In this document: positions 11,470 through 13,388 of the stretch, piece by piece
Layout: every line of letters starts with the position of its first letter
How positions within the stretch are numbered: the stretch's first letter is position 1
From: Myxococcota bacterium
Lineage (GTDB): Bacteria; Myxococcota; B64-G9
NCBI GenBank assembly: GCA_022710975.1
Contig: JAKLGA010000009.1
Location: forward strand, 181,547 to 245,546
Direction of reading: 5' to 3'
Length of the DNA: 64,000 bases
The notes under the pieces: model-generated
The model's database searches: none
The model's input: only the letters and a program-made list of their open reading frames with translations
Told to the model about the DNA's origin: nothing
Made by a program: the position numbers and the translations under genes

Positions 11470-12477
11470 ATGGGTGAGCTCAAGGACCGGATCAAGGCCG
11501 TGGCGGCGGCGCTGGCCACCATCGAGAAGCAGTTCGGCAAGGGCGCCATCATGCGCCTGGGTGACGGGGAGGCGGGTGTCGAGCCCGTGGCGGTCATCCC
11601 GACCGGCTCGTTCGGCCTGGACCTCGCCCTGGGGGTGGGCGGGCTGCCGCGTGGCCGGGTGGTGGAGGTGTTCGGGCCGGAGTCCTCGGGCAAGACGACC
11701 CTCGCGCTGCACGTGATCGCCGAGGTGCAGCGGGCCGGCGGCGTGGCCGCCTTCGTGGACGCCGAGCACGCGCTCGACGTGACCTACGCCTCCAAGCTGG
11801 GGGTCAAGGTCGCGGACCTGCTCCTCAGCCAGCCGGACACCGGCGAGCAGGCCCTCGAGGTGACCGACATCCTGGTGCGCTCGGGCGGCGTGGACCTGGT
11901 GGTGATCGACTCGGTGGCCGCCCTGGTCCCCAAGGCGGAGCTCGAGGGCGAGATGGGCGACAGCCACATGGGTCTGCAGGCGCGGCTGATGAGCCAGGCG
12001 CTGCGCAAACTCACCGCCCAGGTGTCCAGGCAGGCGGCTTGCGTGCTGTTCATCAACCAGATCCGCCAGAAGATCGGGGTGATGTTCGGCAACCCGGAGA
12101 CCACCACGGGCGGCAACGCGCTCAAGTTCTACGCCTCGGTGCGCCTGGACATCCGCCGCATCGGCGCCGTCAAGCGGAGCGAGGAGCTGATCGGCAACCG
12201 CACCCGGGTCAAGGTGGTCAAGAACAAGCTGGCGCCCCCGTTCCGGGAGGTGGAGTTCGACATCCTGTTCGGCGTGGGCATCTCCCGGCCCGGCGAGGTG
12301 ATCGACCAGGCGGTGGAGGCCGGGGTGGTGGACAAGAGCGGCAGCTGGCTGTCCTGGGGCGGTGAGCGGCTGGGCCAGGGCCGGGACGCCGTGCGCGACC
12401 TGCTGGCCGGAAGCCCGGAGCTGCTCGCCAAGCTGGAGCAGGCCTGCCTGGCGGCCCGGGCCGGGGCCGCGGCCTGA
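11470..12477 (+). CDS. recA: Recombinase RecA
   Basis: Canonical RecA sequence throughout: Walker [30 protein letters not shown], and L2 loop [36 protein letters not shown] before the ATG. Confidence 0.95.
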
Positions 12478-13388
12478 TGGACGGGGCCGAGGGCACCGCC
12501 CGGGTGCTGGCGGAGCGCAACCCGCCCACCCGGCGGGTGCCGTGCCTGGTGGTGCTCACGGGCCGGGAGGCCGGGCGGGTGCTGGCCATCGCGCGCGGCG
12601 AGCACATCCTCGGCCGGGGGCCGGGCGCCAGTCTGCGCCTGGAGGATCCGGCCATCTCCCGGCGGCACGCCCGGTTGATCGCCCGCGCCAGCCGGCTCGA
12701 GGCCGAGGATCTGGGCAGCACCAACGGGCTGTGGTGGAACGGGCAGCGGGTGCCGCGGGCCGCGCTGCTGGACGGAGACCGGCTGCAGCTCGGGGACTGC
12801 CGGCTGGCCGTGCGCTGGAGCGGCGCGGACGAGGGCCGCCTGTGGCGGCAGCTCTACCTGCGCGCCACGCGGGACGCCCTGACCGGCCTGCACAACCGCC
12901 CCAGCCTCGAGGAGCGCCTGGCCCGCGAGCTGGAGCGCCACGGGCGCTACCGGCGCGGGCTGGCGCTGCTGGTGCTCGACCTCGATCGCTTCAAGAGCCT
13001 GAACGACGCGCACGGCCACGCGGCCGGAGACGCCGTGCTGCGGGCGACGGGTCAGGTGCTGCGCGCGCAGCTGCGCGCCTCCGATCTGGCCGCGCGGGTG
13101 GGGGGCGAGGAGTTCGTGGTGCTGCTACCGGAGTGCGATCCGGCCCAGGCCCGCGAGGCGGCCGAGAAGCTGCGCCGGGAGCTGGCCGGCCTGGAGGTGG
13201 CCGGTCCGGGGGGAGCGCGCCTGAGGGTGACCGCCTCCGTGGGGGTGGCGCTGGCCGGCCCGGCCGCGGACAGCCCCGCCGCCCTGCTGGCCAGGGCGGA
13301 CGCGGCCTGCTACCGGGCCAAGCAGGGCGGCCGGGATCGGGTCTGCTGCGCCCCGCCCGCGGGCGGCGGGGAGCCGGTCAGCTCTTGA
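12477..13388 (+). CDS. FHA domain-GGDEF diguanylate cyclase, with the active site GGEEF and the RxxD I-site intact
   Basis: Its ATG shares 1 nt with the recA TGA (TGATG). N-terminal FHA-like region (VLAIARGEHILGRGPGASLRLEDPAISRRHARL...STNGLWWNG). GGDEF domain with RASD-LAAR-V-GGEEF. Confidence 0.85.
   Translation: MDGAEGTARVLAERNPPTRRVPCLVVLTGREAGRVLAIARGEHILGRGPGASLRLEDPAISRRHARLIARASRLEAEDLGSTNGLWWNGQRVPRAALLDGDRLQLGDCRLAVRWSGADEGRLWRQLYLRATRDALTGLHNRPSLEERLARELERHGRYRRGLALLVLDLDRFKSLNDAHGHAAGDAVLRATGQVLRAQLRASDLAARVGGEEFVVLLPECDPAQAREAAEKLRRELAGLEVAGPGGARLRVTASVGVALAGPAADSPAALLARADAACYRAKQGGRDRVCCAPPAGGGEPVSS

Follow-up and report, generated by a model that had tools for sequence, protein, structure and literature searches.

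A 64,000-nucleotide (nt) stretch of contig JAKLGA010000009.1 from a Myxococcota bacterium (assembly GCA_022710975.1, positions 181,547 to 245,546 of the forward strand; hereafter the window, numbered from its first letter) carries a recA gene that is followed directly by a gene for a DgcB-type FHA-GGDEF diguanylate cyclase, which we call dgc. Here, we describe this gene pair, its conservation in a clade of uncultured Myxococcota, and a predicted sigma-54-type promoter whose design recurs in front of comM. The window comes from an uncultured Myxococcota metagenome-assembled genome that recurs in anaerobic-digester metagenomes, and its G+C content is 72%. On the plus strand, recA occupies positions 11470-12477 (335 amino acids [aa]) and dgc positions 12477-13388 (303 aa). 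The RecA protein is deposited as HOX45567.1 and HRY95927.1, with the cyclase carrying the next accession number each time. The recA stop codon TGA (12475-12477) and the cyclase start codon ATG (12477-12479) have one base in common, and the resulting TGATG (12475-12479, plus strand) is the predicted site of translational coupling.

The recA product is an ordinary, full-length RecA. It matches the Pfam RecA family (E = 2.9e-136, with model positions 1-262 of 262 covered) as well as RecA_C, scores above the TIGR02012 equivalog cutoff (537.8 bits versus 325.3), and is 62% identical to Escherichia coli RecA (3CMU) across 319 residues. Relative to the E. coli protein, the Walker A motif (GPESSGKT) and the L1 and L2 DNA-binding loops are intact. 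We considered a special C-terminal tail in the RecA of this clade and rejected it, given that tail length and charge resemble those of relatives. A Shine-Dalgarno sequence that we read directly from the DNA, GGGAGGTG, precedes recA at 11458-11465 (plus strand). Meanwhile, no clear Shine-Dalgarno sequence lies ahead of the cyclase start in the window, so translation of the cyclase probably depends on ribosomes terminating at recA. We found neither a sigma-70-like or sigma-54-like promoter nor a terminator-like site within or between the two genes. A scan for intrinsic terminators and sigma-70 promoters over positions 11000-14000 was likewise empty, which is weak evidence at a G+C content of 72%, and the window contained no RNA element with an Rfam match.

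The recA-cyclase pair, with overlapping codons, was found in at least 10 distinct lineages of uncultured Myxococcota (the window, L007, L009, L094, L095, L096, L173, L174, L175, and L176). The overlap takes the form TGATG in eight of them (the window, L009/L093, L094, L095, L096, L173, L174, and L176) and ATGA in the other two (L007 and L175), a frequency of stop/start overlap far above chance expectation. In every fetched contig that carries an orthologous cyclase, the gene lies directly 3′ of recA. Identity to the window copy across these lineages ranges from 71 to 86% for RecA, and from 53 to 82% for the cyclase when calculated over 13 aligned orthologues, a set that differs in part from the 10 lineages. 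The surrounding genes are not constant. Upstream of recA we encountered a PMT_2/TPR gene, comM, an HU gene, a Ser/Thr kinase gene, a two-component pair, or a gene for a PEGA protein. Downstream of the cyclase there was a convergent Hsp70 gene, a ribbon-helix-helix gene, asnA, or a gene for a 1377-aa protein.

An alignment scan of metagenome contigs using only the FHA domain returned, among the matches listed, the orthologues L093-L096 together with the negative controls L097-L101. In FHA-GGDEF homologues that are at most 48% identical (L097-L101 and P0020), recA was absent from the available 2.5-6 kb of upstream flank. A scan of genome contigs with the cyclase alignment, whose patterns fell in the generic GGDEF core, yielded no orthologue and no gene adjoining recA among the matches listed. 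A sequence-only reading of the locus had pointed out the base shared by the recA stop and the cyclase start, and had proposed that the genes are co-transcribed and translationally coupled. The shared base is present as described. Co-transcription and coupling are well supported by the comparison of lineages, because the overlap persists in 10 of them while the flanking genes change, and the lack of any promoter or terminator match between the genes is in keeping with this.

Upstream of recA, the conserved part of the aligned orthologous leaders is TGGCCCG-N4-TTGCA. This corresponds to the sigma-54 consensus, with the -24 GG and the -12 GC at their obligatory spacing. In the window, the predicted -24/-12 promoter of recA-dgc (TGGCCCGAGGCTTGCA) lies at 11397-11412 on the plus strand, is kept before recA in eight lineages, and would place the transcription start near position 11423. 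A second predicted promoter of this type (TGGCCCTGGCTTTGCT; 7805-7820, plus strand) is located 45 nt before comM and is kept in L007, L009/L010/L093, and L177. The pattern TGGCNCG-N4-TTGCW has two matches in the window versus 0.09 expected. The looser pattern TGGC-N7-TTGCW has three, namely, the recA promoter, the comM promoter, and a site in a SurA-like gene; its background is 36 matches in 1.42 Mb of unrelated loci, counting both strands. All 12 recA and comM promoters of the clade that we examined have TGGC-N7-TTGCW, at 32-74 nt ahead of the start codon, an invariance that is partly circular at the searched positions since the matches were located with the pattern. From this layout, we infer that sigma-54 is used at both the recA and the comM promoters. 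The third match in the window (TGGCCCGCGGGTTGCT; 18346-18361, minus strand) falls inside the gene for the SurA-like peptidyl-prolyl isomerase, approximately 670 nt upstream of a gene for a Cys-rich protein. No palindrome was seen with it, and it could be a chance match or an internal promoter.

The predicted promoters are accompanied by a palindrome with the 17-bp consensus TGTCCGG-AAT-CCGGACA, approximately 80 bp further upstream, where the binding site of an activator would be expected. The recA copy (TGACCGATTTACGGACA; 11317-11333, plus strand) lies 80 nt upstream of the -24 element and is the sole match in the window to TGTCCG-N5-CGGACA with at most one mismatch; an extra half-site, CGGACAC, is found nearby at 11340-11346 (plus strand). 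The comM copy (TGACCGGAAAAATCGGACA; 7725-7743, plus strand) also lies 80 nt upstream of its -24 element, and it recurs before comM in L007, L009, and L177. Eleven promoters could be read far enough upstream to look for it. In nine of these, TGTCC-N7/9-GGACA with at most one mismatch is located 80-91 nt ahead of the -24 element, against a background rate of 0.044 palindromes per kb. In L177, the nearest palindrome starts 70 nt upstream of the -24 element and two more copies lie further up, while L174 has the palindrome solely as variant half-sites. Perfect palindromes are present in L175 (TGTCCGGAATTCGGACA) and in L177 (TGTCCGGAATCCGGACA, three copies). Between palindrome and -24 element there is a further conserved motif, TAAC-N4-TTGAT at 7775-7787 on the comM side and TAACTGCCTGTTT, a copy of TAAC-N4-TTG, at 11367-11379 on the recA side (both plus strand). 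It resembles a site for integration host factor (IHF).

The comM gene belongs to the comM/yifB family of Mg-chelatase-like AAA+ ATPases (7865-9397, plus strand; 510 aa; ChlI, Mg_chelatase, and Mg_chelatase_C domains), and its product scores above the TIGR00368 cutoff (608.9 bits versus 362.4). In other bacteria, ComM is a branch-migration helicase with a role in transformation. A gene for a PMT_2/TPR membrane glycosyltransferase-like protein (9424-11319, plus strand; 631 aa) separates comM from recA in the window. This intervening gene is also found in L007, and in both cases comM and recA have one promoter copy each. It is absent from L009 and L177, where comM and recA adjoin each other and one promoter precedes both. 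Specifically, L009 has comM-recA-dgc in one run behind one such promoter, with a gap of 20 nt between comM and recA. In L177 (300-2858), a predicted sigma-54 promoter with three palindromes precedes comM-recA, and no GGDEF gene follows recA; a convergent gene for an FAD-dependent oxidoreductase takes its place. Because the same predicted promoter and palindrome precede both comM and recA, the comM and recA-dgc transcription units look like one regulon under an enhancer-binding protein and sigma-54. A CheY-like single-domain response regulator (136 aa; 7166-7576, minus strand) is encoded divergently from comM in the window and likewise in L007, so that the palindrome and promoter of comM fall in an intergenic region shared with that gene. 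Lacking a sigma-54 activation domain, this regulator is not the activator.

The cyclase has an FHA domain at residues 44-106 (Pfam E = 4.7e-16; encoded at about 12552-12812, plus strand) and a GGDEF domain at residues 130-288 (E = 5.6e-44; 12864-13340, plus strand). As the sequence-only reading had stated, the active site is intact and accompanied by an RxxD I-site. The GGEEF motif (residues 209-213; 13101-13115, plus strand) and the RASD sequence that forms RxxD, five residues before it (residues 200-203; 13074-13085, plus strand), are invariant in the 13 orthologues. The same is true of D168/D170, N176, D185, and K282/R286, which occupy metal/GTP and catalytic positions. The base-specificity position is Asp rather than Ser in all 13, indicating that the product is c-di-GMP rather than cGAMP. 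We infer an apparently active enzyme that is subject to product inhibition.

The FHA domain and the N-terminal tail of the cyclase are conserved in a manner that suggests control by phosphorylation. By sequence, the best solved relative is the full-length Bdellovibrio DgcB structure 6HBZ (E = 7e-40, residues 22-290), which is also the best fold match of the predicted model (Foldseek E = 3.8e-26, template modeling score 0.73). The model has a predicted local distance difference test score (pLDDT) of 86 and a disordered N-terminal tail. Among the residues of the FHA phosphothreonine-binding cleft (R47, S61, R62, T82, and N83, equivalent to R61, S75, R76, T96, and N97 of DgcB), R47 is present in at least 90% of the 13 orthologues and the other four are invariant; no such conservation is seen at the position of DgcB K72. 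In the tail, Thr7 (12495-12497, plus strand) is invariant, with Val or Leu at +3 in 13 of 13 orthologues and Asp or Glu at -2 in most. From this motif to the FHA core there are 15-18 residues. In Bdellovibrio bacteriovorus DgcB (Bd0742), the enzyme is activated when pThr14 in its N-terminal tail docks in the FHA cleft, and Val at +3 (V17) is decisive (Meek et al. 2019; PMC6733907). The T-x-x-V/L motif of the window cyclase is probably a phospho-ligand for its own FHA domain in the same way. Taken together, the conserved FHA cleft, tail Thr, catalytic residues, and I-site point to a cyclase that would be gated by a kinase and limited by its product.

One lineage offers a hint about a kinase. 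In L174, features at 26-961 (minus strand) and 1589-4246 (plus strand) comprise a gene just upstream of recA-dgc for a Ser/Thr kinase fused to beta-propeller (Tricorn/PD40) domains and, further upstream, a gene for an FHA-only protein. This kinase is one that could phosphorylate the N-terminal tail of the cyclase.

On balance, we think it probable, though well short of certain, that the locus encodes a recombination module driven by sigma-54 and an activator, in which recA is coupled to a phospho-gated c-di-GMP synthase. In this model, recA and the DgcB-type cyclase gene would form a two-gene operon with overlapping codons that has been kept in a clade of uncultured Myxococcota. A putative enhancer-binding protein of the NtrC family probably activates the sigma-54 promoter from the 17-bp palindrome approximately 80 bp upstream. 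The same promoter design would drive comM, with a single promoter driving comM-recA-dgc in some lineages, and comM, recA, and the cyclase would thus belong to one activator-dependent recombination module. Ribosomes that finish recA would re-initiate on the cyclase, which would be made only when RecA is made. A Ser/Thr kinase probably then phosphorylates the N-terminal Thr of the cyclase, within M-[D/E]-x-T-x-x-[V/L], and binding of the tail to the FHA cleft would switch the cyclase on. Output of c-di-GMP would require both the sigma-54/activator signal, which would also raise RecA and ComM, and the kinase signal. Recombination and DNA-processing capacity could thereby be tied to a second-messenger decision, and a link between recombination and c-di-GMP is plausible.

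Several points weigh against this model. All of the promoters are predictions whose -24/-12 elements were found by pattern. The palindrome varies in its spacing, with 7 nt separating TGTCC from GGACA in some copies and 9 nt in others. We found no gene for a GAFTGA-type enhancer-binding protein in the window or in the orthologous loci. L177 has the promoter and comM-recA without the cyclase, implying that the cyclase is dispensable for the module. A clear Shine-Dalgarno sequence ahead of the cyclase start is missing in the window and present in some orthologues, so the degree of coupling may differ among lineages. Finally, the organism is uncultured.

Two further candidates were considered and rejected. 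An activator gene in L176/L179, the only one nearby, was examined as the cognate enhancer-binding protein, and it proved to encode a 331-aa protein of the PspF type, divergent from pspA-pspC. In L179 (16182-19580), a pspF-pspA-pspC cluster and a gene with a PilZ domain lie 5-8 kb downstream of recA-dgc, an adjacency that is not kept in other lineages. PilZ is a c-di-GMP receptor domain. We also considered the 77-aa ribbon-helix-helix protein encoded 3′ of the L009 cyclase as a CdbA-like c-di-GMP receptor. The PDB gave no CdbA-type match to it; the only matches were the ORF E73 protein (4AAI; E = 0.2, weak) and tektin (E = 0.24).

Among the alternatives, the one that fares best is that the GGDEF protein occupies the position that recX has 3′ of recA in many bacteria and acts on or with RecA, through association, a local c-di-GMP pool, or c-di-GMP-dependent modulation of the filament, rather than being only a co-expressed output. 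In accord with this idea, no lineage with the cyclase has lost the stop/start overlap, and further evidence comes from a sister lineage. There, a RecA approximately 75% identical to the window copy is encoded in comM-recA-X operons (L178 and L180-L182), where the recA-X junctions again overlap, as ATGA or TAGTG. X, encoded directly 3′ of recA (L178, 7044-7463; L180, 5001-5408; L181, 531-938; L182, 330-737), represents a family of 130- to 140-aa proteins in 20 clusters. When aligned with the GGDEF domain of the cyclase family, the X family gave an hhalign probability of 94.6% (E = 6.7e-8), and 8 of 17 members matched Pfam GGDEF. In place of GGEEF, X proteins have REVGV, and the GTP/metal loop is deleted. 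In contrast to this loss of catalysis, the RxxD equivalent LRxTD is invariant, as is a C-terminal WQEAWRWAGTLLVADAAVPAAA. The sister X loci lack the sigma-54 promoter and the palindrome. The gene cinA lies nearby on the opposite strand in L178 and L180 only.

That a GGDEF-fold gene stayed in the coupled slot despite the loss of catalysis suggests a function connected with RecA itself, and it hints that the GGDEF partner of the window recA may have a RecA-related role as well. However, the RecA of the clade has no obvious special feature, with its 62% identity to the E. coli protein and its ordinary tail; L177 has no GGDEF gene after recA; and the homology of the small X family to GGDEF is moderate. 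We regard action on or with RecA as possible but unlikely. A broader proposal seems to us just as tentative, namely, that GGDEF-fold proteins, whether an active kinase-gated cyclase or a dead derivative that keeps the I-site, could be dedicated RecA partners that modulate recombination, directly or via local c-di-GMP, within a LexA-independent sigma-54 comM-recA regulon. Such an arrangement would represent a non-SOS switch for homologous recombination, serving, for example, DNA uptake or a developmental or stress program.

It is also conceivable that the linkage has no functional meaning, with the cyclase merely inherited beside recA and the overlap reflecting genome compaction. Genes in GC-rich genomes often overlap by a short distance, Myxococcota have many FHA-GGDEF proteins, and L177 has the same promoter with no cyclase. 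Yet the junction has survived repeated rearrangement on both sides while cyclase identity has fallen to approximately 55%, and a derived GGDEF remnant has been kept at the same position in the sister lineage. Accidental linkage is, in our judgment, improbable.

The recA gene is a textbook member of the LexA-controlled SOS response. The sequence-only reading had called recA the SOS recombinase, pointed to an inverted repeat, GCTTGC-AAG-GCAAGC, as a possible site for LexA, and suggested a link from DNA damage to the second messenger. On this model, LexA would repress recA-dgc at the repeat, and DNA damage would induce the cyclase directly. In its favor, the repeat exists, at 11406-11420 and 50 nt before recA, and recA is LexA regulated in many bacteria, including recA2 of Myxococcus xanthus (PMC12288472). 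By itself, the repeat is a weak signal, being one of 8 comparable inverted repeats (6-9 nt) within a 181-nt stretch. Its left arm coincides with the -12 element of the predicted sigma-54 promoter, and its right arm is missing from the orthologous promoters (L007, L094, and L096); what is conserved is TGGC-N7-TTGCA, which fits sigma-54. We scanned for seven types of LexA box (M. xanthus, E. coli, Gram-positive, alphaproteobacterial, Bdellovibrio, Geobacter, and cyanobacterial) and obtained no credible match upstream of recA or comM. Nine of the 10 recA and comM promoter regions had zero matches, and L175 had three one-mismatch matches of the Gram-positive and alphaproteobacterial types that we judged to be chance. 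Because the repeat overlaps the conserved -12 element and its right arm is not conserved, the SOS framing is not supported, and LexA repression of this operon appears highly improbable. Most likely, on the evidence of these leaders, the transcriptional input to recA-dgc is an enhancer-binding protein with sigma-54 rather than LexA.

It is similarly very doubtful that TGGC-N7-TTGCA is something other than a sigma-54 promoter, with TTGCAA serving as a sigma-70 -35-like element (it resembles TTGACA) or an operator and the palindrome as a repressor site, for although the promoter is known from prediction only, all 12 promoters keep the GG-N10-GC spacing exactly, a conserved -10-like hexamer is missing from the positions 16-18 nt downstream, the sigma-70 scan was empty, and a palindrome approximately 80 bp upstream with an A/T-rich motif between is the classic layout of enhancer-dependent promoters.

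Beyond the operon, the nearest neighbor of dgc in the window is a convergent gene for a noncanonical Hsp70 paralogue (13378-15099, minus strand), whose 3′ end overlaps that of the cyclase gene by 11 nt and whose score is below the curated cutoffs for DnaK and HscA. It is a frequent neighbor of recA-dgc and probably stands outside the operon. Adjoining it is the gene for the Cys-rich protein mentioned above, which has 819 aa and a metal-binding motif of the MopE type (15216-17675, minus strand). In the window, L007, and L173, the Hsp70 gene and the MopE-motif gene stand together next to recA-dgc; in L175 and L176, the convergent Hsp70 gene is present and the MopE gene was not seen in the fetched stretch. 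Elsewhere in the window, a 1051-aa protein (1367-4522, plus strand) contains Dicty_CTDC repeats ("Dictyostelium repeat"; E = 4.9e-48), an unusual family in a bacterium, and two very long open reading frames on the minus strand (52039-61794, 3251 aa; 42829-47589, 1586 aa) have coding-like G+C content at third codon positions.

Placement of recA and comM behind activator-dependent sigma-54 promoters would show another way in which bacteria turn on recombination. Furthermore, the pairing of recA with a phospho-gated cyclase, together with a dead GGDEF protein in relatives, would provide a concrete and testable link between recombination and c-di-GMP. So far, this link has been only indirect, through effects of RecA on biofilm in Pseudomonas aeruginosa (PMC10100956) and through receptors for c-di-GMP that sit on the M. 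xanthus nucleoid (PMC7156744). Although the organisms are uncultured, all of the parts are small enough for tests in a heterologous host.

The components of the module are all of known kinds: RecA, ComM/YifB, a DgcB-type cyclase, and a sigma-54 promoter. Their combination is not found in the literature that we searched, where we saw no description of a recA-cyclase operon, of sigma-54-dependent recA or comM, or of the palindrome. In concept, the nearest known case of recombination being linked to a second messenger is the radA-disA operon of Firmicutes and Actinobacteria, where a repair gene of the RecA superfamily is co-transcribed with the gene for DisA, a c-di-AMP synthase that scans DNA integrity. 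DisA has the DAC fold and binds DNA directly. The window cyclase differs in having a phosphopeptide sensor and no DNA-binding domain, and in both its nucleotide and its fold.

The predicted promoters can be compared with those of the NtrC type, where the activator binds TGCACC-N5-GGTGCA. They share the TGGC-N7-TTGC core, a 6-N5-6 palindrome approximately 80 bp upstream, and an A/T-rich motif between the two. In contrast, the papers searched do not describe a sigma-54 regulon made up of recA, comM, and a cyclase. As for gene order, recA is co-transcribed with an accessory gene in recA-recX and cinA-recA operons, often with overlapping or closely spaced codons. The gene 3′ of the window recA, however, encodes an FHA-GGDEF protein (a degenerate GGDEF protein in the sister lineage) rather than RecX, whose role is cited in PMC12288472.

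Within the same phylum, M. xanthus has recA1 and recA2 together with LexA and DdiA. Part of its damage response is LexA independent, and sigma-54-dependent regulators change in abundance after mitomycin C treatment (PMC12288472). It offers a known case of recA control that does not depend wholly on LexA. Neither a cyclase linked to recA1 or recA2 nor sigma-54 promoters for these genes are reported in that study, and in this respect the window differs.

The closest match for the cyclase itself is DgcB of B. bacteriovorus. The two proteins have in common the FHA-linker-GGDEF architecture, the phosphothreonine-binding residues, the GGEEF motif, and the RxxD I-site. Moreover, Thr7 of the window cyclase, followed at +3 by a hydrophobic residue and preceded at -2 by an acidic one, resembles the E-K-pT-S-I-V sequence of the DgcB tail (PMC6733907). 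DgcB controls prey invasion, and recA is never mentioned in the paper that describes it (PMC6733907). In contrast, the window cyclase, which is only approximately 30% identical to DgcB, is encoded by a gene that overlaps recA and lies behind a predicted sigma-54 promoter.

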